From an uncultured Bacilli bacterium (GTDB taxonomy: Bacteria; Bacillota_I; Bacilli_A; RF39; UBA660): 64,000 bases of DNA. Shown here in pieces: positions 3,114 through 52,138 of the stretch. The DNA lies in assembly GCA_944358305.1 (NCBI GenBank), contig CALVQK010000007.1, positions 8,165 to 72,164 of the forward strand. The letters are read 5' to 3'. A program made the position numbers and the translations under genes. The notes under the pieces are model-generated. The model did no database searches. It had not been told where the DNA came from and was given only the letters and a program-made list of their open reading frames with translations. How positions within the stretch are numbered: the stretch's first letter is position 1; every line of letters begins with the position of its first letter.

Positions 3114-4064
3114 TTAATTTAAGTTACTTCTTTTAACAGTTTCTATATCTTGACCTTCTACCTTAAAATTAATAGTATTTACAGAATAGTTAGCAAAAGC
3201 GGAATAGCTTAGCATATATAAAACCTCTTCCTTTATTTTATCATTATTATCAAATAAGGCATTATTAAAATTTAATATCAATAAATCATCATCTACTAAT
3301 TCTTTATCAATTAACCTGGTATTTTCATTTAAAATACTTTTCAAATTATCTTCATATATATAGCTAGTGGTTAGTTCTTCGACAATTATATTAATCTTAT
3401 CTTTATTATCGTTATTATTTAAATATTTAGTAACAGGAACATAATAAATATCATCATTTATATCTTCACCATAATATATTACAACTTTAGTAATATTATC
3501 TAAAGTATTATAAGTATATTCATTGTTTATACCAATTTCTCTCGTAATTGGCATAGTTAGTTTTTTATTACTATTTGGATATGTTTCTAAAGGCTTAGAT
3601 TCTACTGTAATATTTACCTTATTTATATCATCTATCTCGGTTATAGAAAAAACAATCGCTTCTATTAATTTAGTGGATAAATCTTCATCAACTTTTAATA
3701 ATTCTTTAGAAAAATCAAGGGTAACTGAATCATTTTCAATATTAACACTATTTAATTTAGTCTTTTCGGGTATTATACTTTCTAAATTATCAGGAAACTT
3801 ACTTTCATCACTTACTGTTAAGTTATTAATAATACTTTTTATATTATCTTCAACCTTTTCATTATCAAGTAGAATTTTAGTTTTAACCAAATAATTATTC
3901 TCATCTAATAAATAAATAGAAGAATTGGCAAGATCTGTTATATATTCAAATTCTAAATTAGTTTCTAATGTTTTTTCTGTTAGAGGTATTAGATAAATAG
4001 TCATAATTATAAAAAGGCTCATCGTTGTAATAAATATTTTTCTTAAAGCTTTTTTTCTTAGCAT
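3114..4064 (-). CDS. gerM: GerMN-domain sporulation/germination protein (GerM-like)
   Basis: YLLDENNYLV, VTLDFSKE, ITREIGIN and YYVPVT motifs in two GerMN-like repeats. Confidence 0.75.
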   Translation of the reverse strand: MLRKKALRKIFITTMSLFIIMTIYLIPLTEKTLETNLEFEYITDLANSSIYLLDENNYLVKTKILLDNEKVEDNIKSIINNLTVSDESKFPDNLESIIPEKTKLNSVNIENDSVTLDFSKELLKVDEDLSTKLIEAIVFSITEIDDINKVNITVESKPLETYPNSNKKLTMPITREIGINNEYTYNTLDNITKVVIYYGEDINDDIYYVPVTKYLNNNDNKDKINIIVEELTTSYIYEDNLKSILNENTRLIDKELVDDDLLILNFNNALFDNNDKIKEEVLYMLSYSAFANYSVNTINFKVEGQDIETVKRSNLN

Positions 4065-35814: not shown

Positions 35815-37201
35815 CTAAACTCCATGTTTTCGCTTCTGTAATTTCTACAGGAATAATATTACCAAGTTCTACATCATCACCTGTAAAATTAACTAACTTA
35901 TTAGTATCACTATAACCAAAATATTCATTTTTTTTATCACTAATTCCTTCTACTAAAACAGGAACAGTCTTACCTACAAGTTTTTCGTTATTCTCTTTAA
36001 AATAAGAATTTACTATTTCATTGAGCTTATAAAGTCTTTGTTCCTTTTCTTCTTTAGTAACATTATCAGGAAGTTTTGCAGCAGGAGTGCCAACTCTAGG
36101 TGAATAAATAAAAGTATAAGCATTATCATATTTACATTCTTTAACTAAGTTTAATGTTTCTTCAAAGTCACTATCTGTTTCTCCAGGAAATCCTACTATT
36201 ATATCAGTAGATATAGCACAGTTAGGAATCATTTCTTTCATCTTATGAAATAAAGTTAAATACTTTTCTTTAGTATAACGTCTTCCCATTAATTTTAAAA
36301 TTCTATCACTACCTGATTGAACTGGTAAATGAATACTTGGCATAATATTAGGATACTTGGCAATTACTTCTATCATTTCATCAGTAAAATCCCAAGGATG
36401 ACTTGTCATAAATCTAATCCTAGGTATGTTTGTTTTAGCTACATCTTCTAGAAGTTCTGCTAGAGAATAATTATCATATAAGTCTTTACCATAAGCATTA
36501 ACATTTTGACCTAGTAGTGTTACTTCTTTATAGCCCTCTTTAATAAGATTATCTATTTCTTTTAAAATATCTTCTTTTTCTCTACTTCTTTGTCTTCCCC
36601 TTGTATAAGGAACAATGCAATAAGTACAGAATTTATCACAGCCATAAATAATATTAACGTAAGCTTTATATTTACTAGTTCTATCTACAGGTAGACTTTC
36701 TATTAAATCTCCTTCTCTTGAATATACTTCTATTTGTTGTTTATCTTCGCTTCTTTCTAATATTTCTGGTAGCTCATAAAAATTATGCGTACCTATTACA
36801 AAATTAACAAAAGGATATTTTGTTATAATAGTATTAACAACTATTTCTTCTTGAGCCATACAACCACATAAACCTATCTTTAAATCCTTTTTAGTCTGTT
36901 TTAAGTGCTTTGCTCTACCAAGTAATCCAAAAGCCTTATTATGGGCATTTTCTCTAATAGAACAAGTATTTAATAAAACTAAATCAGCTTCATCCATATC
37001 ATCTGTAAAAGTATAGCCTAATAATTCTAATATTCCTTTAATATTTTCACTATCATGTTCATTCATTTGACAACCATAAGTTTTTAAATAACACTTCTTA
37101 CCTTTATATTTATTAAGATATTTTGAATCTAATTTATAATCAATTTTCTTATAATCTATTTTTGTACTACTACGAGCGACTTTAAAATCTGGTAAATGCA
37201 T
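35795..37201 (-). CDS. miaB: tRNA methylthiotransferase MiaB
   Basis: TYGCQMNEHDSE, CDKFCTYCIVPYTRG and C-terminal TRAM domain. Confidence 0.95.
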   Translation of the reverse strand: MHLPDFKVARSSTKIDYKKIDYKLDSKYLNKYKGKKCYLKTYGCQMNEHDSENIKGILELLGYTFTDDMDEADLVLLNTCSIRENAHNKAFGLLGRAKHLKQTKKDLKIGLCGCMAQEEIVVNTIITKYPFVNFVIGTHNFYELPEILERSEDKQQIEVYSREGDLIESLPVDRTSKYKAYVNIIYGCDKFCTYCIVPYTRGRQRSREKEDILKEIDNLIKEGYKEVTLLGQNVNAYGKDLYDNYSLAELLEDVAKTNIPRIRFMTSHPWDFTDEMIEVIAKYPNIMPSIHLPVQSGSDRILKLMGRRYTKEKYLTLFHKMKEMIPNCAISTDIIVGFPGETDSDFEETLNLVKECKYDNAYTFIYSPRVGTPAAKLPDNVTKEEKEQRLYKLNEIVNSYFKENNEKLVGKTVPVLVEGISDKKNEYFGYSDTNKLVNFTGDDVELGNIIPVEITEAKTWSLDGKVSK

Positions 37202-37875: not shown

Positions 37876-38571
37876 TTAAACTGCAACTTCCATTATGACA
37901 TTTTTTACTATATTGTCCATGAAAGTTAATTTATTATTCATAAGTTCATTTTTGATAATGTCAAAATTCTTCTTAACTAAATCTACTATTTCTTTTACTT
38001 TAGGTAATAATCTAGTTTTCTTAGATAATTCTTTTACAATAGTCTCTAAATTAGTTAATTTAGTATATTTACCAAAGTTATCACTTTTAATAAATGTATT
38101 ATATAAATTATTAAATGAAACTAAATCGATATTATTAAATCTTTTATCTTCTAGAAGTTTTAAGGTTGTACATAAATTACCTGTTGAAATAGCAAGATCA
38201 AGAATTGTTTTTCCTTCATTATTTCTAATATTAGGATCAAGTTCTTTATTTCTTTTTAATTTTTTTATGATATTAGCAGTATGAAGATAGTTTTTAGTTG
38301 CAAGCAAATGAGCGAAAGTATTACCATCTTTATTTTGATGATTAATATCACTATTAGTATCATTAATATACTTTTCTACTAAATCATATTTTTTACTCTT
38401 TAATAGTCTCATTAAAATAGTATTACCACCCTCGTCTATTGTATTTAAACTAACTATTTTCTTCTTTATTAGTTTATCTACTAATTCTAGATGTCCTTCT
38501 TTTATAAGTTCAAATATCAAGGACGAGTCTTCTTCACAAGCATTAGTTGCTTGTGTCTCATCGTAAAACAT
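37876..38571 (-). CDS. Ankyrin repeat protein
   Basis: GNTILM, GNTFAH and GKTILD repeats; TTGACA-17-TACAAT promoter upstream. Confidence 0.8.
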   Translation of the reverse strand: MFYDETQATNACEEDSSLIFELIKEGHLELVDKLIKKKIVSLNTIDEGGNTILMRLLKSKKYDLVEKYINDTNSDINHQNKDGNTFAHLLATKNYLHTANIIKKLKRNKELDPNIRNNEGKTILDLAISTGNLCTTLKLLEDKRFNNIDLVSFNNLYNTFIKSDNFGKYTKLTNLETIVKELSKKTRLLPKVKEIVDLVKKNFDIIKNELMNNKLTFMDNIVKNVIMEVAV

Positions 38572-38709
38572 TTAAAACACCTCTTCTTTTACGTGCGGTA
38601 TTTATTGTACCATACGTCTGTTGTTTTGTCAATTTTACTACCTACTATCAGTATGAACAGTTACTTGATATTTATACATTCTTATTATAATAAATTTATT
38701 GTTACATAC

Positions 38710-38745
38710 GAAAAATCAAGCCTATACATAGCTTGATTTTTATCG
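38710..38745 (-). terminator. Terminator closing the recombinase-associated locus
   Basis: AAAAATCAAGC..GCTTGATTTTT inverted repeat. Confidence 0.65.
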
Positions 38746-38750
38746 TATTA

Positions 38751-39902
38751 TTATTTTTTCTTTATAGTTAAAACAGCTGGATTTACGGTACCTTTTACTT
38801 CTTCATCTTCAATACCATATTGTTTATTCCAATATACTCTATAAGCTTCACCATTTTTAGCGAAATGTGATAGAGCATTAGCGGTAGCGCTAGCCATAAA
38901 ACCACTTAAACCAAGTTCTTCACTATATACTTGTTTTTCTGCTTCTTCAAAAGAAACTCCTTCTGCAAATTTTTTCATCATAGAAATAGTCGCTTTTACT
39001 ACAAATACAGAATAACCATCATTGGTATTGGCATCAGCGAATTGTAACCACTCTTCAGTTGTTTCCGGATTAATTAAAGTTAAGCCTTCTTTCATAAGGG
39101 TATACTTCATTTTTTTGGCTTCTAAATCACTTTTTTCTTTATATTCAGCCCATTCTTTATCTCTTTGTGCTTTTAGAGCCTCTTCTTTATCAACTATACT
39201 ATCTCCAAATATTAAGCGTTTAGAAGCAAATATATCTTTATCAGATCTTCTATCATAACCATATTCAATATTGGGGTTTGAATATAATACTTCACCATCT
39301 TTTGAAGTAATGTTAGAAATTGCTGCACCATATCCAACAAATGGAATACCACTACAACCAATTTCTACATTTACGAAATCAGTTACATTTTTTAATTCTG
39401 CTGTTTCTTCTTGTTTAACACCATACCACCAACCGGTATAGGATACATCTTCACCAATATGCTCTCTTAATTTGTCAAACATTGCTTTAGCTAGGGCCTC
39501 TTTATCTTGTTCTTTAGTAGCGACAAACTCTTCAAAGGTCATATCTCCTTCTTCAAGTGGTAAGAATGAACCAACTTGAGTATGACAAACATATTTGTAG
39601 TCGTTAGCTTCCATATTGAAAATTAAGGTTCTGTAATCTGGATTATTTCCATATTGCTCTTTAACTTCATCAAAACTCATTCTTTTACCATAATAAATCC
39701 AGTTAGAATAATTTGATGTTTCTCCATCATAAGTTTTTTCACCGTCTATAACAAATTCTTTGTCATAAAAACGGAATCCTTGCATTTTTCCATCATTTTC
39801 AACTTTCATTGGATCTTTCTTTTCAATTTCTTCTACAGATGATTCACTAAATAGTAAACCTCTATAAATTTTTTCAACGTAACTTTTTGTTACTTTTTCC
39901 AT
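38751..39902 (-). CDS. Hypothetical protein (cargo of switch 1)
   Basis: 383-aa ORF with AAGGGGG RBS; no family recognised. Confidence 0.7.
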   Translation of the reverse strand: MEKVTKSYVEKIYRGLLFSESSVEEIEKKDPMKVENDGKMQGFRFYDKEFVIDGEKTYDGETSNYSNWIYYGKRMSFDEVKEQYGNNPDYRTLIFNMEANDYKYVCHTQVGSFLPLEEGDMTFEEFVATKEQDKEALAKAMFDKLREHIGEDVSYTGWWYGVKQEETAELKNVTDFVNVEIGCSGIPFVGYGAAISNITSKDGEVLYSNPNIEYGYDRRSDKDIFASKRLIFGDSIVDKEEALKAQRDKEWAEYKEKSDLEAKKMKYTLMKEGLTLINPETTEEWLQFADANTNDGYSVFVVKATISMMKKFAEGVSFEEAEKQVYSEELGLSGFMASATANALSHFAKNGEAYRVYWNKQYGIEDEEVKGTVNPAVLTIKKK

Positions 39903-39925
39903 ATCAATTTTCCCCCTTCAACTAT

Positions 39926-40100
39926 CGCAAAGTGTAATACTATAAGAAAAACAGCAATAGATACTATTTACCTTGTGGTTGATTGCTGTTTTCTTTTGTA
40001 TGAATCACAAACTTTAGGTGGTCAAAGTTGACAAATTGATAATTTTATGATAGAATTTATGCCATATCAAGCAGAAAATCTCAAAGTATTACACTTTGAG
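39926..40100. promoter_or_regulatory. Putative invertible promoter, switch 1 (OFF as assembled)
   Basis: Left site CGCAAAGT-GTAAT-ACTATAAG, right site CTCAAAGT-ATTAC-ACTTTGAG (inverted cores); internal TTGACA-17-TAGAAT (40028-40056) points away from the gene. Confidence 0.8.
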
Positions 40101-40112
40101 ATTTTTATTTGT

Positions 40113-40574
40113 TTATAATGATTTTCTGTTACTATTTTCTGCTTCCATTCTTTCATGAATCTTTGGAACTACAACTTCTCTATTAGCTTTAAGATACTCA
40201 TCCCATTTAGCATCCATTGGTCCAAATTTCTCATCATATGAAGGTACTCCTTCTATTTGAATCGAATCATCTAAGAAAGGTAAGGCATAAGTTAATCCTA
40301 AGTTTTCTTGAATTTCTTCTTCTGAATAAGCTCCACATCTTAAAGCCATTAAAGTTCTATTAAACTTTCCTTCATTCTTACCACAACTATCACTATAAAG
40401 CATCCAAACTTTTGATCCTCTAATATCTAGTGTGTCTAGTAGAAGAATATCCATAAAACCTCTTGGGTCTTGTATCATTTGCATTAAGACTGTTAATGCT
40501 CCGGGATTGCCTTCTGACATAACCATCATTAGATCCATAATACTCATATCACTTGTTATCTTCTCATTACTCAT
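40113..40574 (-). CDS. Hypothetical protein (cargo of switch 2)
   Basis: 153 aa; SEGNPGA..LDTLDIRGSKVWMLYSDSC motif resembles small phage-type proteins; AAGGGGG RBS. Confidence 0.7.
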   Translation of the reverse strand: MSNEKITSDMSIMDLMMVMSEGNPGALTVLMQMIQDPRGFMDILLLDTLDIRGSKVWMLYSDSCGKNEGKFNRTLMALRCGAYSEEEIQENLGLTYALPFLDDSIQIEGVPSYDEKFGPMDAKWDEYLKANREVVVPKIHERMEAENSNRKSL

Positions 40575-40599
40575 ATATAATTCCCCCTTATTTAACTAT

Positions 40600-40773
40600 C
40601 GCAAAGTTAAAAACTAAAAGAAATTATAGAGTTTTTTAAGATATTATTATAATTTATACTTCTAATGTTATAACAAAGTAAATATAATTTGTGGTCAAAA
40701 TTTGACAAAACTCGCTTTATATGTTAGAATTTATGCCATATCAACGAGTTATCTCAAAGTTTTTAACTTTGAG
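40600..40773. promoter_or_regulatory. Putative invertible promoter, switch 2 (OFF as assembled)
   Basis: Left site CGCAAAGT-TAAAA-ACTAAAAG, right site CTCAAAGT-TTTTA-ACTTTGAG; internal TTGACA-17-TAGAAT (40702-40730) points away from the gene. Confidence 0.8.
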
Positions 40774-40802
40774 AAAATAAAAAATCTCAAACACTTGAGA
40801 TT

Positions 40803-41285
40803 TTATTTTTTTAATCTTTTTGGAAGACTATTAATTGTATCTGTTAAAGCCTGTTCTAATATTGTTTTATCAAAGCCAAAGTCTTTATAACCTTCCATAC
40901 ATGTTGTTATATATTCTTCTGAAGGAAGATGATAGTCAAAGTCCTTATTCATTACATAGATTAAGGCTTTTTTATTTTTATCGCCTATTTTTATAGGTAT
41001 ATAGTACTTTGAATAAACGCTTGGATAGCCTTCATAATTATCTAAAGAGAAAATATCTAACATAGAAACTTCATATAAACCTAAAGGCACACTAGAATTC
41101 TTACACTTTTCTATCGTTAAATACGCAAAGCTATCTTCTCTTCCTTTATATACTAGTCTATATCCATTTAAATTAAGTGTACTAATAGGTCTAGAATTTG
41201 GGCATCTAAATGCCATTTGTTCTAAATTTAAATTACTTCCATAAGCTAAATAATATTTTTTTAACATACTACACCTACTTAACAA
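40803..41285 (-). CDS. Gamma-glutamylcyclotransferase (AIG2-like)
   Basis: YLAYGSNLN..QMAFRCP and LDNYEGYP motifs. Confidence 0.88.
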   Translation of the reverse strand: MLSRCSMLKKYYLAYGSNLNLEQMAFRCPNSRPISTLNLNGYRLVYKGREDSFAYLTIEKCKNSSVPLGLYEVSMLDIFSLDNYEGYPSVYSKYYIPIKIGDKNKKALIYVMNKDFDYHLPSEEYITTCMEGYKDFGFDKTILEQALTDTINSLPKRLKK

Positions 41286-42273
41286 ACTTTTTAGCTTTGA
41301 CAGCTGTCTTTATTCCATAATTGTTTTGAAAGTTTTTTAAATATTGTCTTAAAAAATATATTTTATCTAAATTATTATCAAATACTAAATCAACAAATTC
41401 TAAGACATTTTTTAAATTAACATTATTATACAGATATTTATTTTCAGAATATGGTAAGTATTCATGTTCTAATTTATAATCTAAGAACTCTTCATCCATT
41501 ACTTTATCTCTAGATGCTACTAACATTTTAGTAAAGGTATTTATATTATTTTGCCATATTACGGCATTAGTAGTGGCATTGGGACTTCTAAATTCTAAAG
41601 TATTATGTTCATATATTTGTCCTGGGTTTGAAAAACTTACATTACGGAAATTTAAAGCAGCATATCTTTCATATGTTGGTAAAGCCCAATTGATCTCTGA
41701 TAAAGTATAAGCTTCCTTAATACTTCGCATTACTCTATATAAGGAATCTGCGATTGGTGGGGCATATTTAGATAATCTTTTTCGGCCACTAATTTTATCT
41801 CCATATACAAATCTAAAAATTATGTTTTCATAAGCTGTATAGAGTTTTAAAAAACTCTTCCATGCCTCTATATCTTCTCCTAATACATGTACCCCTACAT
41901 GAATATGCCCACCGGCATTATGTAAGGTATCAGCTTTTCTTTTTGAAAGATGGTTACAAACTTTTTGTAATTCCTGCCAATACTTAATTTCATCTGTCAT
42001 AATAGGAGAAGTTATCTCTCCTCCTGAACTTAGGGATCCATCTCCAGCAGAGTACCATCCTTTTAAATTTTTATCTACAAATCTATTAGTTATAAGTCTT
42101 AGAGCTTTTTCATACTCTATTTCAACACCAAATGTTATATCATCTGGTAAATTTAGTTTATCTCTATACTCTAATAAATAATTTTCAGTTTCAACTAATA
42201 AATCTTGTAAATCTATACCTCTTAAAAGAGAAAATTCATCATTTCTTTTCTCGTTTATAAATGTGCTATTCAT
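41275..42273 (-). CDS. Putative amidoligase (COOH-NH2 ligase, Amidoligase_2-like)
   Basis: TFGVEIE, DGSL, EITSPI, AGGHIHVG, RYAALN and TLEFR motifs. Confidence 0.85.
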   Translation of the reverse strand: MNSTFINEKRNDEFSLLRGIDLQDLLVETENYLLEYRDKLNLPDDITFGVEIEYEKALRLITNRFVDKNLKGWYSAGDGSLSSGGEITSPIMTDEIKYWQELQKVCNHLSKRKADTLHNAGGHIHVGVHVLGEDIEAWKSFLKLYTAYENIIFRFVYGDKISGRKRLSKYAPPIADSLYRVMRSIKEAYTLSEINWALPTYERYAALNFRNVSFSNPGQIYEHNTLEFRSPNATTNAVIWQNNINTFTKMLVASRDKVMDEEFLDYKLEHEYLPYSENKYLYNNVNLKNVLEFVDLVFDNNLDKIYFLRQYLKNFQNNYGIKTAVKAKKFVK

Positions 42274-42285
42274 ATAATCATCCCC

Positions 42286-43149
42286 TTATAATTTTCTTAA
42301 TCTATAGGAATGTCCTTCTCTTGTTTCAAAATTATTTGACTCACCGTTTATCATTGCTAAATTTTCTTGTTTTACTTTAAGAATCTTTTTCATAGTTTCT
42401 AATTCTTCTTTAGTTATAGGTCTAAATAAAGGTACATATTCTTCTAATTTATCTCTTATATATGTTTTGATAAATAAATTACCTATACTTTTAAAGTTAT
42501 TACCCCAACATAATGATAAAACAATATAGTATATAGAATTCCAAATATTTTCACCTGATGTTTCTAATCTTGTAATAGTTTCATCTAAAGATTCATAATG
42601 ATTTACAACAATTGTTGCATCTTTGTCATAAATACTATCTTCAGGATTTAAAGTATTTTTCTTTATAGTCTTTATATTTGTTATAACTAAAGCTTGATCT
42701 ATTTCTTCTTTTGACATAGACATAATTTTTTCTGTATCAGATAAATCTAATTCATCATTTAATCTATATGAAGTAACTGTTCTTTCATATAGACCTTTAT
42801 CATTTTTAATCCAACCTGTTGAATATTCAATTAGCTCATCTTCATAACTAAAATCATAAGAGATATGTTCAATATGGATACCAGAAGAAGTATCTATCAT
42901 TTCAATTTCAGCTGGTTCTTCGATTTCATCTATACGAAATGGAGCATCTCCAGAAGCTGTTTTTGCCCAGCCAATAATTATAGTAGCGGCAATAAAAGGA
43001 AGAGCATAATCTAAAGCTATACCACTTTTTAATAGTGATTTAACTAGTAAATTACGGATATTATAAAATTTTCTATATTGTATTTTATTTTGTAATTTAT
43101 TGGCGTCTTTGGTAAGTTTACTTACTAATTCATTGTTATTCATTAACAT
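42286..43149 (-). CDS. Hypothetical membrane protein (paralog of the upstream gene)
   Basis: Coiled coil, YNIRNL, ALPFI, PFRIDEI, YSTGW and a second hydrophobic segment. Confidence 0.7.
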   Translation of the reverse strand: MLMNNNELVSKLTKDANKLQNKIQYRKFYNIRNLLVKSLLKSGIALDYALPFIAATIIIGWAKTASGDAPFRIDEIEEPAEIEMIDTSSGIHIEHISYDFSYEDELIEYSTGWIKNDKGLYERTVTSYRLNDELDLSDTEKIMSMSKEEIDQALVITNIKTIKKNTLNPEDSIYDKDATIVVNHYESLDETITRLETSGENIWNSIYYIVLSLCWGNNFKSIGNLFIKTYIRDKLEEYVPLFRPITKEELETMKKILKVKQENLAMINGESNNFETREGHSYRLRKL

Positions 43150-44020
43150 TACCCCCTTTTTTTCTTAAAAGGGATAATATTTTTTCATTTGTTTCTTCTA
43201 ATTCTTGTTTAAGTGGTTCTATTGCGTAAATTTTATAAGCATAGTATTCATTAGTTTGTCTTAACTCATAACGAAAATCAAAATCTCTAAAATGGGCAAT
43301 TGCTCCACCAATTCCTAAACTTAGAACTAGTTCAATAATAGTTATTACTATATTTTTTAAAGCTGTTTCATCATATTTTAAAACATCTTCTTTATTAAAC
43401 ATGTGAAGACTAGCTTCCATAAAGTAACCGTTTTTCTCTTCAGGATTAATTTCATTTACTATTTGTTTTTCTTCTTGATAATCTTTTAAGTTTAGAGAAA
43501 TATAATTATAATCTTCATCTAAAACAGCATTATATAAATCTAAGGTTGTTGTATCTTCAAGATTATATTCTCTTTTATATCTTATATATTGTTCATCTTG
43601 TTCTTCCCATGGTGTATAGATGACTAAACTATTATCTGGTAGTAATTCATCAAATAGTTGGTCTGTTCTATATTCTTCATCCATAGTTATATTGCCTTCT
43701 GTTTGAAAGTCTAAATTATAAACTTTATATTTAGTTATTTCATCAGAATGAAAAGGAAAACCGCCGCCAAATAATTTAAATAAACCAATAGTAATTCCCG
43801 TTGATATGACAAAAGGTGCTGCAAAATTACAGGCATTAGCAAAAACTTTTAAATTTCTTATATTAAATTGTTTAAAGTTCTCTTTTTTTTGCTCGGATAT
43901 TTTATTTTCTAGCTCTAAAACTTTTAATTTTAACTCTTCTAGTTCCTTAATTTTTGTTTTACGAATTTCTTCTCTTTTTTGTGCAAGTATTTTTTGTTTT
44001 CTTGTTTTTCTATTACTCAT
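43136..44020 (-). CDS. Hypothetical two-TM membrane protein (first gene after switch 3)
   Basis: Coiled coil, FNIRNL, AAPFV, PFHSDEI and YTPW; AGGGGG RBS before the ATG at 44020. Confidence 0.7.
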   Translation of the reverse strand: MSNRKTRKQKILAQKREEIRKTKIKELEELKLKVLELENKISEQKKENFKQFNIRNLKVFANACNFAAPFVISTGITIGLFKLFGGGFPFHSDEITKYKVYNLDFQTEGNITMDEEYRTDQLFDELLPDNSLVIYTPWEEQDEQYIRYKREYNLEDTTTLDLYNAVLDEDYNYISLNLKDYQEEKQIVNEINPEEKNGYFMEASLHMFNKEDVLKYDETALKNIVITIIELVLSLGIGGAIAHFRDFDFRYELRQTNEYYAYKIYAIEPLKQELEETNEKILSLLRKKGGNVNE

Positions 44021-44039
44021 TTCTAATCCCCCTATTATT

Positions 44040-44238
44040 CTCAAAGTACATTACTTTAGGATTTCCCCCTTTGAATGCCCTATATATTACTATATTTTTC
44101 GTGCAAAGTCAAGTTTAAAGTTTACTTTTAGTTTAATTTCTTCAGAATGCCTTTTAATATAAAGATGTGGTCAAGAGGCATAAATAACATGAAAGTACCC
44201 ATACTTTTTTCCCTTTTCTAAAAGTAATGTACTTTAGG
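44040..44238. promoter_or_regulatory. Putative invertible promoter, switch 3 (ON as assembled)
   Basis: Left site CTCAAAGT-ACATT-ACTTTAGG, right site CTAAAAGT-AATGT-ACTTTAGG; minus-strand TTGACT-17-TAATAT (44112-44084) points into the operon. Confidence 0.8.
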
Positions 44239-44249
44239 ATATAAAAAAA

Positions 44250-44285
44250 TAACCATTGATGGAATTAATGCCATCAATGGTTTTA
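44250..44285 (-). terminator. Terminator of the recombinase gene
   Basis: AACCATTGATGG-loop-CCATCAATGGTT hairpin followed by a T-run on the minus strand. Confidence 0.75.
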
Positions 44286-45368
44286 TTAATATAAAGGTTT
44301 TAATTGATTCATCATTATGACTTTATTTTCATAATTAGGATGAACATATCTTTCTAATGTAATTTTCACACTAGAATGTCCTAATATTTCACTAAGTGTT
44401 TTAGAATCACAGCCATTTTCTATACATCTAGTGGCAAAAGTATGTCTTAAAGCATGAAAATTATAAAACGCTAAATCTAATTTTTTCATAGTTTTTTTAT
44501 ATTTATTAAAATAAGTTCTTGTTTCTATAAATTTTTCTGTACCAGTTATTAGAAAGATATTAGGCGTTATATTAACGTTTAATTTTTCTATTAATGGAAT
44601 TAGGAAATCAGGTATTGGTATTTCTCTAATTGAAGCAGAAGATTTAGGTTCATCAATAATAATAATTGTTTTCTTTTTAGAAGTTTCATCCGGATTTTTT
44701 ATTCTAATTATAGTTTGTCTAACATATATTTTTTTATTTTGTAAATCAATATTTTTCCATTGAAGAGCACATAACTCTCCTATTCTTAGGCCTGTATAAA
44801 GACAAAAATAAATGCCAAAAGACATTGTATTTAAATTACTTAATAATTCTCCTTCTAACTTTATTTGCTCATCTTTCTTTAATATTTGTATTTCACTTTT
44901 AGGTATTTTAGGCATTGGAATCTTTAAATTAATATTTCCAGTTTTTAAAATTTGTTGAAGAATTATTAGTATATCTTTAACACTTTTCGCTGCTAAACCT
45001 TCATTAAGTAAATCCGAAGTAAATTTATTTATAAGTTCTATTGATATTGCTTTTTTCTTAACTTTGGCAAAGTTAGGAATTATTCTTGATTTAAGAATAT
45101 ATTGATAGTTTGAATATGTTGACTTTTTATTTTTTATTTTAGAGTTATGCATCCAAGAGTTAATATCATAACCAATATAACTCTTATCAAATATTAATAA
45201 GTCATTATTTTTAAATAAATATTCAATTTTATTTTTATAATTTTTAACTACTTCTTCTTTACTGTTGCCATAAACAGATTTATAATTGGCCGAGCCATCT
45301 TCTTTATAGCCATAATGATACCTTATTTCAAACCTTCCATCTTTTCTTAAATAGATATTTTCTTTCAT
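44286..45368 (-). CDS. Tyrosine recombinase/integrase with N-terminal arm-binding-like domain
   Basis: Intact catalytic set TGLRIGEL, PKS, HALRHTFAT, LGHSS, RYVH; N-terminal NIYLRKDGRFE..YKSVYG. Confidence 0.93.
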   Translation of the reverse strand: MKENIYLRKDGRFEIRYHYGYKEDGSANYKSVYGNSKEEVVKNYKNKIEYLFKNNDLLIFDKSYIGYDINSWMHNSKIKNKKSTYSNYQYILKSRIIPNFAKVKKKAISIELINKFTSDLLNEGLAAKSVKDILIILQQILKTGNINLKIPMPKIPKSEIQILKKDEQIKLEGELLSNLNTMSFGIYFCLYTGLRIGELCALQWKNIDLQNKKIYVRQTIIRIKNPDETSKKKTIIIIDEPKSSASIREIPIPDFLIPLIEKLNVNITPNIFLITGTEKFIETRTYFNKYKKTMKKLDLAFYNFHALRHTFATRCIENGCDSKTLSEILGHSSVKITLERYVHPNYENKVIMMNQLKPLY

Positions 45369-45472
45369 ATAAATTCTCCTTTCACCTATATAATACATTT
45401 ACTTAAATAATGTTAAAGTGAAAAGAAATTATAGATTATAAAAAAGCCATCTAAGATGACTTTTAAATATAT

Positions 45473-46762
45473 TTATTTATTTTTAGGAGTAATTACTTCT
45501 AAACCTCCCATATATGGTCTTAATGCTTCTGGTACTGTTACACTTCCGTCTTCATTATAGTTATTTTCAATTACAGCAATTAGGCCACGTGGTGATGCTA
45601 CTACAGTGTTGTTTAGTGTATGAACAAAGTATGTACCATTTTCTCCCTTAGTTCTAATTCCTAAACGTCTTGCTTGAGCATCTCCTAAAGTTGAACAACT
45701 ACCTACTTCAAAGTATTTTTGTTGTCTTGGACTCCAAGCTTCAACATCACATGATTTTACTTTTAGATCGGCAAGATCACCACTACAACATTCTAATTGT
45801 CTAACAGGGACATTCATATTTCTAAATACTTCAACAGTGTAACGCCACATCTTTTCATACCAGTCCATAGAGTCTTCTGGTTTACAGATAACAATCATTT
45901 CTTCTTTTTCAAATTGATGAACGCGATAAAGTCCTCTTTCTTCTAGGCCATGAGAACCTCCTTCTTTTCTAAAACATGGTGAATATGAAGTTAGTGTTAA
46001 AGGTAAGTCTTCTTCTTTAATAATTTGTCCTTTATATCTACCTATCATAGAATGTTCACTAGTACCAATTAGATATAAATCTTCTCCTTCTATTTTATAC
46101 ATCATCGCTTCCATTTCAGGGAAAGACATAACTCCTGTTACAACATCACTATGAATCATAAAAGGTGGAACACAATAAGTAAAGCCTTTATCTATCATAT
46201 AATCTCTGGCATAGGCAATCATTGCTTCATGAAGTCTTGCAATATCACCTGTTAAAAAGTAAAATCCTTCACCAGATGTTCTTCCTGCAGATTCTTTATC
46301 CATACCATTAAGTCTTGTTATAATATCAGCATGATATGGTATTTCAAACTCAGGTTTATAGGCATCTCCAAAACGTTCTACTTCTACATTTTCACTATCA
46401 TCTTTACCTATAGGAACACTCTCATCCATAATATTAGGAATTACCATCATTTTACTTCTTAACTCATCATTAAGAGCTTTCTCATCATTTTCAATAGTTA
46501 CCAATTTTTCATTGATCTTTTTTACTTCTTCTTTCTTTTTATTAGCTTCATCTATCTTTTTATCTTTCATTAAAAGACCAATAGAACTACTCTCTTCATT
46601 ACGTTTTTTACGTAATTCATCGCCTTCTTGTTTTAAATTTCTGATCTTTTCATCTAGTTCTACTACTTCATCTACTAGAGGTAGTTTTTCATCTTGAAAT
46701 TTCTTTTTAATATTTTCTTTAACTAATTCCTTATTTTCTCTTACAAATTTAATATCTAACAT
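45473..46762 (-). CDS. serS: Seryl-tRNA synthetase
   Basis: MLDIKFVREN, LIGTSEH, PCFRKE, RVHQFEK and HTLNNT motifs. Confidence 0.96.
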   Translation of the reverse strand: MLDIKFVRENKELVKENIKKKFQDEKLPLVDEVVELDEKIRNLKQEGDELRKKRNEESSSIGLLMKDKKIDEANKKKEEVKKINEKLVTIENDEKALNDELRSKMMVIPNIMDESVPIGKDDSENVEVERFGDAYKPEFEIPYHADIITRLNGMDKESAGRTSGEGFYFLTGDIARLHEAMIAYARDYMIDKGFTYCVPPFMIHSDVVTGVMSFPEMEAMMYKIEGEDLYLIGTSEHSMIGRYKGQIIKEEDLPLTLTSYSPCFRKEGGSHGLEERGLYRVHQFEKEEMIVICKPEDSMDWYEKMWRYTVEVFRNMNVPVRQLECCSGDLADLKVKSCDVEAWSPRQQKYFEVGSCSTLGDAQARRLGIRTKGENGTYFVHTLNNTVVASPRGLIAVIENNYNEDGSVTVPEALRPYMGGLEVITPKNK

Positions 46763-46787
46763 AATTCCTCCCTTTCTAGCCGATAAA

Positions 46788-46985
46788 ACAAAAAAAGAAT
46801 GGCTTTTAAGGAGCTTTACAATAAAGTAAAGCGGTGCCATCCTTATTATACTTAATTTAGATAACGGTAATGCCCGGATATAAAATCATCTAAAGAGGAG
46901 ATAGTTAAGATTTTATTACTGTTCTCACCAACCACAGTATCTCTTAAATAAAATTTCTTAACATTGTCTCTTGTCATCGACTTGA
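46788..46985 (-). promoter_or_regulatory. T-box riboswitch leader of serS
   Basis: AGAGA..GGTTGGTGAGAAC stem I, CCGTTATC, T-box AAGGATGGCACCGC; specifier region contains TCT/TCC (Ser). Confidence 0.85.
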
Positions 46986-47025
46986 TTTTATTATAAGCAT
47001 TATTTTTATTTTTTACAAGTATTTT

Positions 47026-48488: not shown

Positions 48489-49067
48489 CTATGCGGTTAA
48501 AACATTTGTTTTTTCGTGTAAAGTTTCTCTTTCTGGAATTTCTCCTACTAAATAATCTCTATTACAAAAGTCTAAAAATTTACGAATTTCTTTTTCTTTT
48601 AAAAATATACTCATACCATTGTATAAAGGATGAAATGCCAATAATTCACTATCAAATAAATCTTGATCTAAAACGACATTTACTTTTTTATCTTGATCAA
48701 ATATTAAGTTAAAAATTGACACATTTCCTGGGGTTGTTTGTAATAAATCTTGCATTTTTTCGCTACTTGCAAACTCTAATTTACTAGTTCCTAATCTTTC
48801 TTTTAATTCTTTTAAATCAACTTGTTTTTCCATTGGAACTATTACTAAGAAGGTTCTCTTCTCTCCTTTTCTTTCTTTTAAAAATAAGTTTTTACAGATA
48901 CAATAGTCATCACCAATAAAATATTTATAGCGATCATAGTAATTAGCAGACTCATCGCATCCTAATACTTCTTTATGTTTAATACAATAATCATAGTGAA
49001 TATCGTGTTCTTCTAAATATTCACAAAAAGATCTTCCTACAATAATTTTTCTTTTTCTCTCATCCAT
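48489..49067 (-). CDS. YbaK/ProX family aminoacyl-tRNA deacylase-like protein
   Basis: CKNLFLK, PGNVSIFNL and FHPLYN motifs. Confidence 0.82.
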   Translation of the reverse strand: MDERKRKIIVGRSFCEYLEEHDIHYDYCIKHKEVLGCDESANYYDRYKYFIGDDYCICKNLFLKERKGEKRTFLVIVPMEKQVDLKELKERLGTSKLEFASSEKMQDLLQTTPGNVSIFNLIFDQDKKVNVVLDQDLFDSELLAFHPLYNGMSIFLKEKEIRKFLDFCNRDYLVGEIPERETLHEKTNVLTA

Positions 49068-49097
49068 AATAAATCAATACCTTTCTTTCTTAGAATA

Positions 49098-49375
49098 ATA
49101 AAAGACTAGTTACATTCCCCAAAACTTTGGGACGAAACTAGTCTTTAACCTTCCGCGGTACCACCCAATTTATCATAGATATTATGATCACTTTTATAGG
49201 TTCCATCAAACCCTGTACTTGATAACGGCATACTTCCCGGCTTAGTCTACTTGAATAAATTCTTTCGGTAAGCAACTCTGAAGTGTTCTTTCTATAAACT
49301 TTATTTCTCTAGCTCCCACCATCCTAGATTCGCTTTAAATAAATGTTTATATACTTTTCTTCTTCACTGTTTTTA
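49098..49375 (-). promoter_or_regulatory. T-box riboswitch leader of the YbaK/ProX gene
   Basis: AATTGGGTGGTACCGCGG T-box, TTTCGTCCC antiterminator arm, terminator AAAGACTAGT..ACTAGTCTTTT, AGCGA..GGATGGTGGGAG stem I, CCGTTATC. Confidence 0.9.
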
Positions 49376-49452
49376 TCATAATATTTTATATTTCATTATA
49401 TGCACTTCTTTTTAAGAAGATACTAGGATGTTATCACTAAATTATTAATTTG

Positions 49453-50046
49453 TCAATGTTTATTAGATTTTTTTATTAACAGATATTTATCATATACATC
49501 ATACCAACTATAAGCTCTATAGATGTTTCTTCCTTTACAAGATATATTATGTTCAGCATGAAAGCAAATAACTGGAAGTGATTTAGCAATAGCATTTATA
49601 TTTTCTTTTTTATCATCAATCATTATATCAATATTATTCTCAAGACAAGTTTTTAATTTGTCAGCTGATTTTAATATCAATTTATCATAAACAATATCAT
49701 TTTTCTTTAACCAAAGTTTTACAATGTCTTCCATATCATTGTTAGGATTAGCATAGCTTTCAGAACATCTAGCAGTAATTATATAAATTTTATTGCCTTC
49801 AGATTTTAGTTTCTTAATAATTTCTTTAGCAAAGGGTCTTGCCTTTTCTTTTGTAGCATAATCATGAACAAGAGCAAGCCAACACTCTTTATCATCTTCT
49901 TTACTTACATTATACATATCTTCTAATGACCAAGCTACTTTAATATCTATTTTTTTATATTTTTCATAAAAGTATTTACTACCATAATCTAAGATATATC
50001 TTGTTATATCAGTAAGTACGCCATCTATATCTATTCCTATATTCAT
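49453..50046 (-). CDS. HAD family 5'(3')-nucleotidase-like protein
   Basis: IGIDIDGVL, IITAR and MIDD motifs. Confidence 0.85.
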   Translation of the reverse strand: MNIGIDIDGVLTDITRYILDYGSKYFYEKYKKIDIKVAWSLEDMYNVSKEDDKECWLALVHDYATKEKARPFAKEIIKKLKSEGNKIYIITARCSESYANPNNDMEDIVKLWLKKNDIVYDKLILKSADKLKTCLENNIDIMIDDKKENINAIAKSLPVICFHAEHNISCKGRNIYRAYSWYDVYDKYLLIKKSNKH

Positions 50047-50059
50047 GTTACCACAGTCC

Positions 50060-50749
50060 TTATTTAATATTATTTATAACTTCTTTATATTTAGAAAAAT
50101 AGCCATCTATTGGCAAAGAAGTAAACTCTAGTTTTTCTTTAGTAGTAGGATGTGTGAATGCTAATTTATAAGCGTATAAAGCGATAGGAAAGGTGCCTTT
50201 TTTACCATACTTATCATCCCCTAATAAAGGATGATTACGAGAAGCAAACTGAACTCTTATTTGGTGATGGCGTCCTGTTTCTAAATTTATTTTAAGAAGT
50301 GTAGTATTATCTTTACTAGCAAGAACTTTAAAAGTAAGACTAGCAAGTTTACCATTATCTTTAGTTCCTATAAAACTACGATATTCTTCTCTTTTTAAAT
50401 AATCAAGATACTTGCCATCATCTTTAATAATACCATTACAAACAGCTAAATAGCTTTTAGAAAACTCTTTATTTCTAATTTGTTCTGATAGTCTACTAGC
50501 AGCTTTAGAAGTTTTAGCAAAGACCATTACTCCTCCTACATTTTTATCAAGGCGATGAACTAGTCCTAAATAGACATTACCAGGTTTATGATATTTTTCT
50601 TTTAAATATTGTTTCAAAATAGTTAACATGTCAGGAGTATTAGTACCATCACTTTGGCTTAATATTCCTACTTTTTTCTCTACTACTAATAAATGATTAT
50701 CTTCATATAAAATATTAATCATAACTTTCCCATCTTCCATAAATACCAC
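50060..50749 (-). CDS. RluA family pseudouridine synthase
   Basis: HRLDKNVGG, TGRHHQIRV and GDDKYG motifs. Confidence 0.92.
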   Translation of the reverse strand: MVFMEDGKVMINILYEDNHLLVVEKKVGILSQSDGTNTPDMLTILKQYLKEKYHKPGNVYLGLVHRLDKNVGGVMVFAKTSKAASRLSEQIRNKEFSKSYLAVCNGIIKDDGKYLDYLKREEYRSFIGTKDNGKLASLTFKVLASKDNTTLLKINLETGRHHQIRVQFASRNHPLLGDDKYGKKGTFPIALYAYKLAFTHPTTKEKLEFTSLPIDGYFSKYKEVINNIK

Positions 50750-51587
50750 AAGGTAATACTAAGTTATTATCTTTTATTTTAAGCCCTATTTCATCACTAG
50801 AGACAATACCTTTATATTTTTTATTTACTGTTGTTAGTAAAAGATTTTCTAAAGATGTTTTAGACAAGCCTGTTGTATAAGAATTTATAATAAAAAATAA
50901 AGGTTTATCACTTAAAATAGACAAGCAAAGATTAACAAGATTAGCAAGATCTTTTTCTATATCCCATACTTCTCCATTAGCACCTCTCCCATAACTTGGT
51001 GGGTCCATAACTATAGCATCATAAGTATTACCTCTTCTTATTTCTCTTTTAACAAACTTAAGAACATCATCTACTAAATATCTAATAGGTTTATCTTTAA
51101 GATTAGAAGATATGGCATTTTCTTTACAAACTTCTACCATTCCACGTGAGGCATCTACATGAGTAACATGAGCTCCTTTACTAAGACAAGCGATGGAAGC
51201 ACAACCTGTATAGCCAAAAAGATTTAATACTTTTATAGGCCTTTTAGCTTTTTCTATTTTATTCATCATGTAATCCCAATTAACGGCTTGTTCTGGGAAT
51301 ATTCCAGTATGTTTAAAGCCCATTTGTTTAATATTAAAAGTTAAGTTTTGATAATTAATAGTCCAAGTGCTAGGAATCTTTTTTAAGTTTTCCCAGTGTC
51401 CTCCTCCTTTATTAGAACGATAATATACAGCATCTATTTTACCTTTATATTTTTCTAGTAAATTGCCATTATCCCATATTATAGTTGGATCTGGTCTTAA
51501 TAGTATATATTTACCAAAACGTTCTAATTTTTCACCATTAGAGGCATCTATAAGTTCATAATCTTTAAAATTATTAGGTGTTATCAT
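50715..51587 (-). CDS. Class I SAM-dependent RNA methyltransferase (RlmI/K-like)
   Basis: KHTGIFPEQ, LNLFGYTG and MDPPSYG motifs. Confidence 0.88.
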   Translation of the reverse strand: MITPNNFKDYELIDASNGEKLERFGKYILLRPDPTIIWDNGNLLEKYKGKIDAVYYRSNKGGGHWENLKKIPSTWTINYQNLTFNIKQMGFKHTGIFPEQAVNWDYMMNKIEKAKRPIKVLNLFGYTGCASIACLSKGAHVTHVDASRGMVEVCKENAISSNLKDKPIRYLVDDVLKFVKREIRRGNTYDAIVMDPPSYGRGANGEVWDIEKDLANLVNLCLSILSDKPLFFIINSYTTGLSKTSLENLLLTTVNKKYKGIVSSDEIGLKIKDNNLVLPCGIYGRWESYD

Positions 51588-51607
51588 TTTATCACTTCCT
51601 TACTTAA

Positions 51608-52138
51608 CTACTTTAAATTATACTCCTTTACTTCACAATTGTTCAACCCAAGAGTTAAAAAATGTCCATCTTTAGGAATGCCATTAAAGTAAGCATAGAA
51701 AGCTTTAGAAACACCACTATGACCTACAACTAGAACGCTATTATAATCTTTTGTTTTTAAATCATCTAAAAAATTATATATTTTATTAAAGAAAGACTTT
51801 ATATCTTCAGAAGTACCATATTTAATAGTTGAATAATAATTCCAATACTCTTCACGATTAGTTACTTCTAGAGGTTGTCCTGATAGGCTACCAGGATTTC
51901 TTTCTTCTAATCTTTTATCTATTATAATTTCTTTATTATTAACATTTATAAGCTCTGCAGTGTGTTTAGCTCTTAATAAGGGAGAAGAATAAATAATATC
52001 ATAATCAATATTTTTAATTTTTTCTCTTAGTTCAAGAGCTTCTTTTATACCAGTTTCATTTAAATCTTCATCTTCATTACTATATATTTTATATAAATTT
52101 TTATCTACTTGACCATGTCTTACTAAATATATTTTCAT
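51608..52138 (-). CDS. Histidine phosphatase family protein
   Basis: LVRHGQ, SSPLLRA and VGHSG motifs. Confidence 0.9.
   Translation of the reverse strand: MKIYLVRHGQVDKNLYKIYSNEDEDLNETGIKEALELREKIKNIDYDIIYSSPLLRAKHTAELINVNNKEIIIDKRLEERNPGSLSGQPLEVTNREEYWNYYSTIKYGTSEDIKSFFNKIYNFLDDLKTKDYNSVLVVGHSGVSKAFYAYFNGIPKDGHFLTLGLNNCEVKEYNLK

Follow-up and report, generated by a model that had tools for sequence, protein, structure and literature searches.

A probable tandem array of three invertible promoter cassettes beside a tyrosine recombinase gene in an uncultured bacterium of the Bacilli

In an uncultured bacterium of the Bacilli (RF39; UBA660), a tyrosine recombinase gene is followed by three short intergenic segments, here called switches 1, 2 and 3, each of which carries a promoter between inverted repeats and lies in front of a different gene or operon. 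The locus is contained in a stretch of 64,000 nucleotides (contig CALVQK010000007.1, positions 8,165 to 72,164; G000:C7:8165-72164 in the numbering used here), hereafter the window, of a draft assembly (G000) with 26 contigs, 1,361,223 bp and about 27 % GC. While describing the locus and its relatives, this article argues that it very likely consists of three site-specific promoter cassettes that can invert (invertons), arrayed in tandem between serS and the recombinase gene on one side and an ankyrin-repeat gene on the other. For switches 3 and 2, natural alleles exist in both orientations, with the crossover within 14-15 bp that are common to both sites.

Organization of the locus

Every gene of the locus is encoded on the minus strand, and the features follow in the order serS, tyrosine recombinase, hairpin, switch 3, four-gene operon, switch 2, gene 2, switch 1, gene 1 and ankyrin gene (Table 1). 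As judged by their inverted-repeat pairs, switches 1, 2 and 3 span 39925-40101, 40599-40774 and 44039-44239, respectively. Each is a short intergenic segment with a promoter inside, and the start codons of the three targets (ATG 39902, 40574 and 44020) together with their ribosome-binding sites are outside the left sites, 18-24 bp from them, as a preliminary description of this DNA had proposed for all three. The sites are of the type TCnnAAAGT-N5-ACTTTnnGA, in which the arms are common to the three pairs and the 5-bp core is pair-specific and reverse-complementary within each pair. That description had placed all six sites correctly, with AAAGT-N5-ACT at 39929-39941 and 40083-40095 (switch 1), 40603-40615 and 40756-40768 (switch 2) and 44043-44055 and 44221-44233 (switch 3). 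Its arms, cores and positions stand, but its site length of 21 bp becomes 23 bp when the conserved positions are taken into account; the first gene of the operon starts outside the left site, at ATG 44020 and not at TTG 44044.

Sites of this type are concentrated in the switches. By chance the window should contain 0.75 matches to CAAAGT-N5-ACT; it contains eight, a number attained in 0 of 100 shuffles, and seven of these lie within switches. For AAAGT-N5-ACTTT, six matches compare with 0.43 expected, and four are within switches. Unpaired matches to the latter motif at 15757-15771 and 36252-36266 are in coding regions and probably reflect chance. The plus strand of the assembly, all 26 contigs taken together, contains 141 AAGT-N5-ACT sites, and a scan of the 1.36-Mb assembly for further pairs of this kind, which the preliminary description had suggested, found core-matched AAGT-N5-ACT pairs 30-3000 bp apart only at switches 1, 2 and 3. 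One inner arm is degenerate in cassettes with promoters of the P1/P2 type (window 39925-39947 and 40599-40621; loci L031, L047 and L038), reading ACTA[AT]AAGA or ACTAATAGA as opposed to ACTTTnAGA; a degenerate inner arm occurs in five of the 38 paired sites surveyed below and could bias the direction of switching.

A promoter scan confirmed one promoter with a 17-bp spacer in each segment, P1 and P2 pointing away from their genes and P3 pointing into the operon; by promoter direction, therefore, switches 1 and 2 are OFF and switch 3 is ON in the window. Among the promoter-like sites in 38600-45500, P1 and P2 rank in the top three, and their regions have in common a 28-nt block that is 93 % identical. 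The homologue of P3 in two related genomes (G006 and G032) reads TTGACT-17-TATAAT and matches at 11/12. The distal site of switch 1 sits in a 14-pair terminator-like hairpin (40074-40106), and a second hairpin with T runs lies beyond the distal site of switch 2 (approximately 40785-40812). When the first 75 nt of the predicted transcripts were folded for both orientations, the OFF-state folds of switches 1, 2 and 3 had predicted energies of -17.6, -20.1 and -16.9 kcal/mol, and a T-rich tail followed in switch 1 (a hairpin, then 7 T in 10 nt) and in switch 2 (a second 10-pair helix, then 6 T in 10 nt); the ON-state folds had -12.4, -9.1 and -6.1 kcal/mol and no T run. OFF-state transcripts are thus predicted to stop at the distal site or at a nearby hairpin. 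No Rfam family was found within the switches, the T-box leader of serS being the sole match.

Table 1. Genes, recombination sites, promoters and other features of the locus (window coordinates)
Feature	Position	Strand	Description
serS	45473-46840	-	T-box leader at 46806-46986 (Rfam)
Tyrosine recombinase	44286-45368	-	Likely start ATG 45368 after AGGAGAA; longest open reading frame reaches 45398
Hairpin	44251-44282	both strands score	12 pairs, terminator-like; between recombinase stop codon and switch 3
Switch 3, recombinase-proximal site	44217-44239	.	TCTA AAAGT AATGT ACTTT AGGA; core 44226-44230
Promoter P3, in switch 3	44112-44084	-	TTGACT-17-TAATAT, 9/12; into operon (ON)
Switch 3, gene-proximal site	44039-44061	.	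TCTC AAAGT ACATT ACTTT AGGA; core 44048-44052
Four-gene operon, target of switch 3	40803-44020	-	First gene starts at ATG 44020
Operon membrane protein 1 (predicted)	43136-44020	-	Hydrophobic segments read from translation
Operon membrane protein 2 (predicted)	42286-43149	-	Hydrophobic segments read from translation
Operon Amidoligase_2 protein	41275-42273	-	Pfam PF12224
Operon GGACT gamma-glutamyl cyclotransferase-like protein	40803-41285	-	Pfam PF06094
Switch 2, distal site	40752-40774	.	TCTC AAAGT TTTTA ACTTT GAGA; core 40761-40765
Promoter P2, in switch 2	40702-40730	+	TTGACA-17-TAGAAT, TG-extended -10, 11/12; away from gene 2 (OFF)
Switch 2, gene-proximal site	40599-40621	.	TCGC AAAGT TAAAA ACTAA AAGA; core 40608-40612
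Gene 2, target of switch 2	40113-40574	-	153 amino acids
Switch 1, distal site	40079-40101	.	TCTC AAAGT ATTAC ACTTT GAGA; core 40088-40092
Promoter P1, in switch 1	40028-40056	+	TTGACA-17-TAGAAT, TG-extended -10, 11/12; away from gene 1 (OFF)
Switch 1, gene-proximal site	39925-39947	.	TCGC AAAGT GTAAT ACTAT AAGA; core 39934-39938; inner arm degenerate (ACTAT)
Gene 1, target of switch 1	38751-39902	-	383 amino acids; C-terminal Tad4-like domain
Ankyrin-repeat gene	37876-38571	-	231 amino acids; far edge of variable hotspot

Naturally inverted alleles

Twenty of the 24 public sequencing runs listed for this DNA, from 10 studies, hold all or part of the stretch, in every case as assembled contigs. 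Four runs from four studies, three of DNA (X10, X12 and X16) and one of an RNA library (X19), were aligned to 38700-45400; X10 is without cover over 38700-41835, apart from a trace in one bin, and was not interpreted there. The interior of switch 3 is inverted in single bridging contigs of all three DNA runs, which come from three studies. Contig 1 of X10 (2667 nt) aligns to 41893-44057 on the minus strand, 44058-44220 on the plus strand and 44221-44559 on the minus strand, with 0-1 mismatches; contig 6 of X12 (5929 nt) aligns to 39498-44042 (+), 44043-44235 (-) and 44243-45400 (+); and contig 13 of X16 (3812 nt) has the same inversion pattern. Switch 3 is also inverted in X19, and the breakpoints in the four runs are at 44042-44058 at the gene-proximal site and at 44220-44243 at the recombinase-proximal site. 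Because the 15 letters AAAGTACATTACTTT are common to both sides at the joints of the three DNA contigs, the crossover is placed inside the site. For switch 2, positions 40602 and 40772 are connected on opposite strands in an X19 contig (side 100, 14 common letters), and a 16-letter loose end at 40615 in the same run equals, when reverse-complemented, the right end of the switch 2 interior, so that both junctions of an inverted (ON) switch 2 exist.

Across switches 1 and 2, both contig 6 of X12 and contig 12 of X16 (39362-41075) run collinear with the window. Since the former also carries the inverted switch 3, switch 3 changes state alone, and none of the eight joints listed links sites of different switches. 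The preliminary description had held that the three segments invert, and do so independently, and had proposed looking for both orientations; that search, made here with contigs from public assemblies, bears out inversion for switches 3 and 2, the breakpoints in natural DNA falling within the repeats, and independence for switch 3, which flips without switches 1 and 2, but switch 1 has been seen only in the orientation of the window. Joints away from the sites, at 40323/45217, 43085/44727 and 44449/44718, have sides of 21-30 letters and were taken as pieces of related organisms. The RNA depth of X19 and the end of its contig 17 at 39936, in the left site of switch 1, were not used for expression or for heterogeneity of switch 1, as contigs show neither.

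The recombinase and its paralogues

The recombinase beside switch 3 is, as had been proposed, an intact tyrosine recombinase. Its uninterrupted open reading frame matches PF00589 over residues 196-357 (91.7 bits versus a cut-off of 27.1) and the SAM-like N-terminal domain PF14659 (24.0 bits versus 22.6), and its homologues align from residue 5-13 onward. The motif blocks GLRIGEL, EPKSS, HALRHTF, GHSS and ERYVH, which we take to contribute the catalytic R, K, H-x-x-R, H/W and Y, align column for column with Int of PDB entry 6en0, the best match among solved structures (E 8.7e-15). The Fim-type invertase models PRK09870 and PRK09871 score 22.8 and 21.2 bits, below their cut-offs of 221 and 222. 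An identity as a Xer protein was ruled out, the best of the XerA, XerC, XerD and XerS models being XerA with 83.3 bits versus 220, as was an identity as an integron integrase (TIGR02249; 48.5 bits versus 265).

Within G000 there are five matches to the recombinase query. A paralogue on contig C4 (approximately 48945-51667; L026 4946-7668), which is 61 % identical and lies downstream of a valS fragment, has a switch of its own, CTCAAAGT-ATTTT-GCTTAAAG / CTCAAAGC-AAAAT-ACTTTAAG, with the promoter OFF. This switch precedes a gene for a 460-amino-acid SigK/SigE-like sigma factor, as identified by the NCBIfam sigma-factor models, and one for a PepSY protein, and hence looks like the control element of a phase-variable sigma factor. 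In the C4 pair, the base beside the N5 core is also pair-specific, which points to an exchanged overlap of more than 5 bp. No AAAGT-type repeat pair flanks a third paralogue (contig C3; 309 amino acids, 48 % identity).

Switches in related genomes

Homologues that are 76-80 % identical to the recombinase are encoded in G006, G018, G032, G034 and G065; eight of 53 genomes of the genus match at E<=1e-60, and 51 of 401 genomes in an order-level draw match at E<=1e-50. In G006, the order is serS, recombinase, one switch, a gene for a 447-amino-acid metallophosphoesterase, the ankyrin gene and a radical-SAM gene, indicating that the locus is a conserved hotspot with variable cargo. The ankyrin gene is conserved at the edge of this hotspot in at least G006, and in G034 and G065 as judged by the size of the open reading frame; the sequence of the hairpin at 44251-44282 is also kept in G006 and G032. 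The comparison of related genomes that the preliminary description had called for bore out inversion for switches 3 and 2. One cassette (core ACATT) is found both in G006 and in its sister species G032, but in opposite orientations and with the inner arms exactly swapped; its promoter faces the cargo in G006 and is turned the other way in G032. A further sister species, G014 (L038, G014:C4 1340-2000), has a homologue of switch 2 with core TAAAA in the ON orientation, between serS and a homologue of gene 2 that is 90 % identical in DNA. G034 has a covarying core pair, GAATT/AATTC. In G071, a homologue of gene 1 (83 % DNA identity) is behind a fixed promoter without a switch. Contigs of G018 (L024, G018:C99 position 1) and G322 (L052, G322:C67 2578-2596) end in a site beside the recombinase gene, which fits branching of the assembly graph from the presence of both orientations in the samples.

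A scan for arms only (AAAG[TC]-N5-[AG]CT[TA]), with no condition on the core, covered 21 loci, namely 20 with a recombinase homologue (54-100 % tblastn identity) and that of G014. Of the 49 sites found, 38 form 19 pairs with a spacing of 140-178 bp, and the cores are reverse-complementary in all 19 of these pairs; across the recombinase family, then, cores covary strictly within pairs. When partners were permuted (100,000 trials), 1.7 pairs were matched on average and nine at most; this result is descriptive only, as orthologous switches are not independent. The 19 pairs have 11 distinct cores, and the number rises to 13 with two pairs whose arms are degenerate and whose cores are matched (G391, TAGAA/TTCTA; G306, AATCA/TGATT). 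The remaining 11 sites comprise the two at contig ends in G018 and G322, two with the degenerate-arm partners in G391 and G306, and seven away from switches, two of which lie inside genes of G032. A pair is found beside the 3' end of the recombinase gene in 17 of the 20 recombinase loci (15 strict pairs and the two with degenerate arms), the three exceptions being the single contig-end sites of G018 and G322 and a recombinase pseudogene fragment in G423.

The consensus of the 38 sites is TTTC-T-[CT]-AAAGT-N5-ACTTT-[AG]-A-GA. T and C are invariant at positions -4 and -3, and G and A nearly so at +17 and +18, so that the site consists of a 9-bp arm, a 5-bp core and a second 9-bp arm. As judged by the best promoter of each cassette, 13 of the 19 are OFF and six are ON, several of the promoter calls being weak. 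Cores turn over among close relatives: those next to recombinases of 76-80 % identity are ACATT, GAATT, TTAAA, AATCT, TATTT and AAAAT. Within genomes that have several switches, all cores differ (four in G000, two in G256). In G256 (L050, G256:C3), switches with cores TTTTA/TAAAA and CTTTT/AAAAG flank a recombinase homologue (56 % identity, one in-frame TGA) on both sides, at 1098-1271 and 3370-3531. G068 has a recombinase and a switch (core TTAAA) equivalent to those of the C4 paralogue. At loci whose recombinase homologue is more remote (<=46 % identity; L058-L073), TCnnAAAGT-type sites do not occur in pairs, and a scan of metagenome and genome contigs with a 20-nt block common to P1 and P2 returned chance matches only (two marine scaffolds and one unrelated metagenome-assembled genome).

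Genes behind the switches

The targets of the three switches in the window form a mixed set. The two membrane proteins of the operon are paralogues (BLASTP, 25 % identity over 271 amino acids, E 2e-09), and the operon proteins have a match to phrog_2520 at 2.2e-39 (PHROGs). Residues 282-382 of the gene 1 protein match Tad4 (Pfam PF25186; 63.7 bits versus a cut-off of 25), and the protein also matches phrog_9822 (PHROGs); its N-terminal 280 amino acids have no family match, and a tblastn search with gene 1 against a phage collection found no match. The gene 2 protein matched no family in Pfam, PADLOC, PHROGs or NCBIfam, and a protein Atlas search with it returned just non-specific neighbours, with scores of at most 0.92 and few features in common. 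Among the six cargo proteins of the window, PADLOC found nothing and NCBIfam gave no name. At the edge of the hotspot, the ankyrin gene has a strong promoter of its own at 38632-38604. There is no tRNA gene in 30000-52000 and hence no sign of tRNA-targeted island integration. With low confidence, and as a guess, the cargo may be regarded as accessory genes, perhaps related to conflict or to the cell envelope.

Elsewhere in the family, switches precede genes for metallophosphoesterases, sigma factors, a Fic protein and a Tad4-like protein. Metallophosphoesterases of 430-450 amino acids are confirmed by Pfam in G006, G034 and G391, and were assigned in G032 by a common N-terminus and in G065 by the size of the open reading frame only; among NCBIfam models, the G006 enzyme matches only YaeI, at 20.7 bits versus a cut-off of 188. 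The cargo of G448 is a Tad4-like protein of 381 amino acids (23.8 bits, just under the cut-off), that of G306 is a Fic/DOC protein, and the switch of G350 is before a gene for an RpoD-like sigma factor. The cargo of L049, L053, L056 and L021/L023/L031 is drawn from a small recurring set, with the flavour of phage-host conflict genes.

Mechanism and alternative explanations

If the locus is an array of invertible promoters, each cassette of approximately 176-201 bp would be bounded by two inverted 23-bp recombinase core sites, and each site would have two 9-bp inverted arms (TCnnAAAGT and ACTTTnnGA) that presumably bind one recombinase monomer each. The overlap for strand exchange is probably the 5-bp core plus one base on either side. 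Synapsis of the inverted sites of a cassette and exchange of strands across the core would flip the cassette together with its single sigma-70-type promoter. In the ON state, the transcript would cross a hybrid site, which lacks a T run, and reach the ribosome-binding site and ATG that lie immediately beyond; in the OFF state, it would stop on meeting the distal site, a perfect palindrome, or a hairpin close by that has a T run. As the preliminary description had proposed, the adjacent recombinase is the presumed catalyst for all three switches, and switch 1 is presumably active as well. Recombination between switches would delete or invert cargo genes. Matched cores within pairs and different cores between neighbours show that recombination takes place inside each pair and does not extend to adjacent ones; in the view of the preliminary description, the differing cores would act through overlap homology to block recombination between switches. 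Spacer variants of lox and FRT behave as this predicts.

Several observations weigh against this picture, in whole or in part. Inversion of switch 1 was not seen, both of the bridging DNA contigs having the orientation of the window and no relative having it inverted. A contig gives one orientation only, so that the alleles in public assemblies exist as such and say nothing about coexistence in one population or about the rate of switching. Promoter-like sites in 38600-45500 are not enriched overall (52 versus 47 expected in an AT-rich region), and the argument from promoters therefore rests on their position and their conservation across relatives and not on counts; P3 is a modest match, and weaker promoter-like sites (10/12) on the opposite strand within switches 1 and 2 mean that the OFF state may be leaky. 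The switch locus of G014 has no recombinase gene, in a genome that is about 85 % complete, and its switch may be an orphan locked in the ON state. In G012 (L039, G012:C4 1460-1590), a P1-type promoter lies between two hairpins with unmatched cores, ACTGC on the left versus ATTAC on the right, and the right hairpin keeps the core ATTAC with paired arm changes, AGAGT and ACTCT; this is read as a decayed relative of the switches or as a pair of plain terminators. The C4 switch has arms of the same type as those in the window, making the C4 paralogue another candidate catalyst, and the 6en0 Int, which we take to be an integrase of the Tn1549 type, presumably tolerates non-homologous overlaps, contrary to the premise that core identity is needed.

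This last point is the basis of the alternative that fares best, which we consider possible though on the unlikely side. Inversion would be real, but the independence of the switches would come from synapse geometry or accessory factors acting on sites about 150 bp apart, the enzyme, Tn916/Tn1549-like, would be tolerant of heterology, and repeated recombination would homogenize cores within pairs by segregation of heteroduplexes, so that pairing would bring about the match of cores and not depend on it. The identity of the closest solved relative fits such an enzyme, as does the tight spacing of all 19 pairs, and the rapid turnover of cores among recombinases of 76-80 % identity would be easier if a single mismatch were tolerated and then spread to the partner site. 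Yet all 19 pairs are matched at each of the five positions and none is half-converted, the cores within G000 and within G256 are all different, and most characterized tyrosine recombinases, such as those of Cre/lox and Flp/FRT, need homology in the overlap.

It is rather improbable that the adjacency of recombinase and switch 3 is merely historical and that another enzyme, the C4 paralogue or a further one, flips some or all of the switches, alone or with the adjacent recombinase. The C4 switch, with arms CTCAAAGT...CTTTAAG, the five recombinase matches in G000 and the G014 switch without an adjoining recombinase would all be in keeping with this; according to the parts of the published record covered here, some switches of Clostridioides difficile, too, need more than RecV (PMC5903667). 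The position of a switch directly behind the gene in 17 of 20 homologue loci argues instead for a cis-linked unit of enzyme and sites, and the G014 switch may be simply locked.

A role of the quasi-palindromes mainly as terminators or operators, with the differences in orientation being rare fixed polymorphisms of strains, is highly improbable: the distal site of switch 1 does score as an intrinsic terminator, a G012 hairpin keeps its stem through paired changes while its partner core is unmatched, and contigs show one orientation each, but the breakpoints are precisely inside the sites in four runs and three species comparisons, gene-proximal sites are imperfect hairpins without a T run, cores covary in 19 pairs, the sites are tightly linked to the recombinase gene, and the breaks of the G018 and G322 contigs fall exactly in a site, as expected if both orientations are present.

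Relation to known systems

Invertible promoters with a tyrosine recombinase nearby have been known for some time. In Escherichia coli, fimS is an invertible promoter beside tyrosine recombinase genes, with the ribosome-binding site of the target outside the element, as here; it is a single switch served by two recombinases (FimB/FimE), whereas the present array has one adjacent recombinase which, by the model scores given above, is outside the FimB/FimE family. Man-made variants such as lox2272, loxN, F3 and F5 combine identical arms with different spacers and thereby form mutually incompatible pairs for one recombinase; in the present case, the arrangement is natural and the incompatibility only presumed. 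The Mpi enzyme of Bacteroides fragilis, unlike the recombinase described here, is a serine recombinase, and its sites are scattered over the genome and follow one repeat consensus.

The comparisons that follow rest on the parts of the cited sources covered here. Mpi is a master recombinase for many independently flipping promoters with combinatorial states, and it and RecV are both recombinases that serve several switches (PMC5903667). RecV of C. difficile resembles the present enzyme as a tyrosine recombinase that inverts several short regulatory segments with inverted repeats (cwpV, flgB and others), but its gene lies away from dispersed targets whose repeats are mostly unrelated, whereas the sites here are clustered and have common arms (PMC5903667). 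The closest precedent is Mycoplasma penetrans. There, no two of 30 mpl promoters have the same 12-bp inverted repeats, and one tyrosine recombinase, MYPE2900, acts on them (PMC3047005), and the majority of the 38 mpl genes, which are arranged in clusters, are switched independently by adjacent invertible promoters (PMC2268961). Compared by description only, the mpl (P35) system and the present locus are alike in having clustered genes with a small promoter inverton each, repeats that differ between switches (cores GTAAT, TAAAA and ACATT here) and a tyrosine recombinase nearby. They differ in their targets: mpl genes form one paralogous lipoprotein family of 38, whereas the cargo here is heterogeneous, the two membrane proteins of the operon being the only paralogues. 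The view in the preliminary description that such an arrangement had no described counterpart therefore does not hold, given the mpl promoters with MYPE2900 (PMC3047005, PMC2268961) and the multi-switch recombinases RecV and Mpi (PMC5903667). Promoter inversion by tyrosine recombinases, and an array of differing switches with one recombinase, are thus already known; what is new is the family of recombinase and sites, its many natural cores in an explicit arm-core-arm layout, a cargo that is heterogeneous and not of lipoproteins, and the host lineage. In a literature search, within the parts of the sources covered, no account was found of this recombinase-site family or of a natural core-coded array other than mpl.

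Biological implications

With this locus, promoter inversion as a means of phase variation is documented for an uncultured gut lineage with a small genome (1.36 Mb, 27 % GC), and the evidence of inversion comes from public assemblies, beyond prediction alone. The locus also brings to light a previously uncharacterized pairing of recombinase and site, with a clean arm-core-arm structure and 13 natural core variants; if core identity alone gives orthogonality, these would amount to a compact natural toolkit of orthogonal inversion sites. A more far-reaching idea, which we offer as doubtful speculation, is that the recombinase clade and its TCnnAAAGT-N5-ACTTTnnGA sites are a natural and evolvable address system, in which the arms recruit one enzyme and a drifting overlap of 5-7 bp is the sole address. 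If so, modules of switch plus gene could be duplicated or captured side by side behind the recombinase, in an integron-like manner and without mutual deletion, at least 13 orthogonal site pairs would be available to one small recombinase, and the bacteria would possess an expression memory of 2^n combined states that covers sigma factors as well as accessory genes of the conflict type. The switched genes themselves, which include those for a Tad4-like protein, metallophosphoesterases, a Fic protein, SigK/E-like sigma factors and an amidoligase/GGACT operon, are unlike the usual surface antigens, and their types hint at bet-hedged functions in conflict or regulation in these bacteria.

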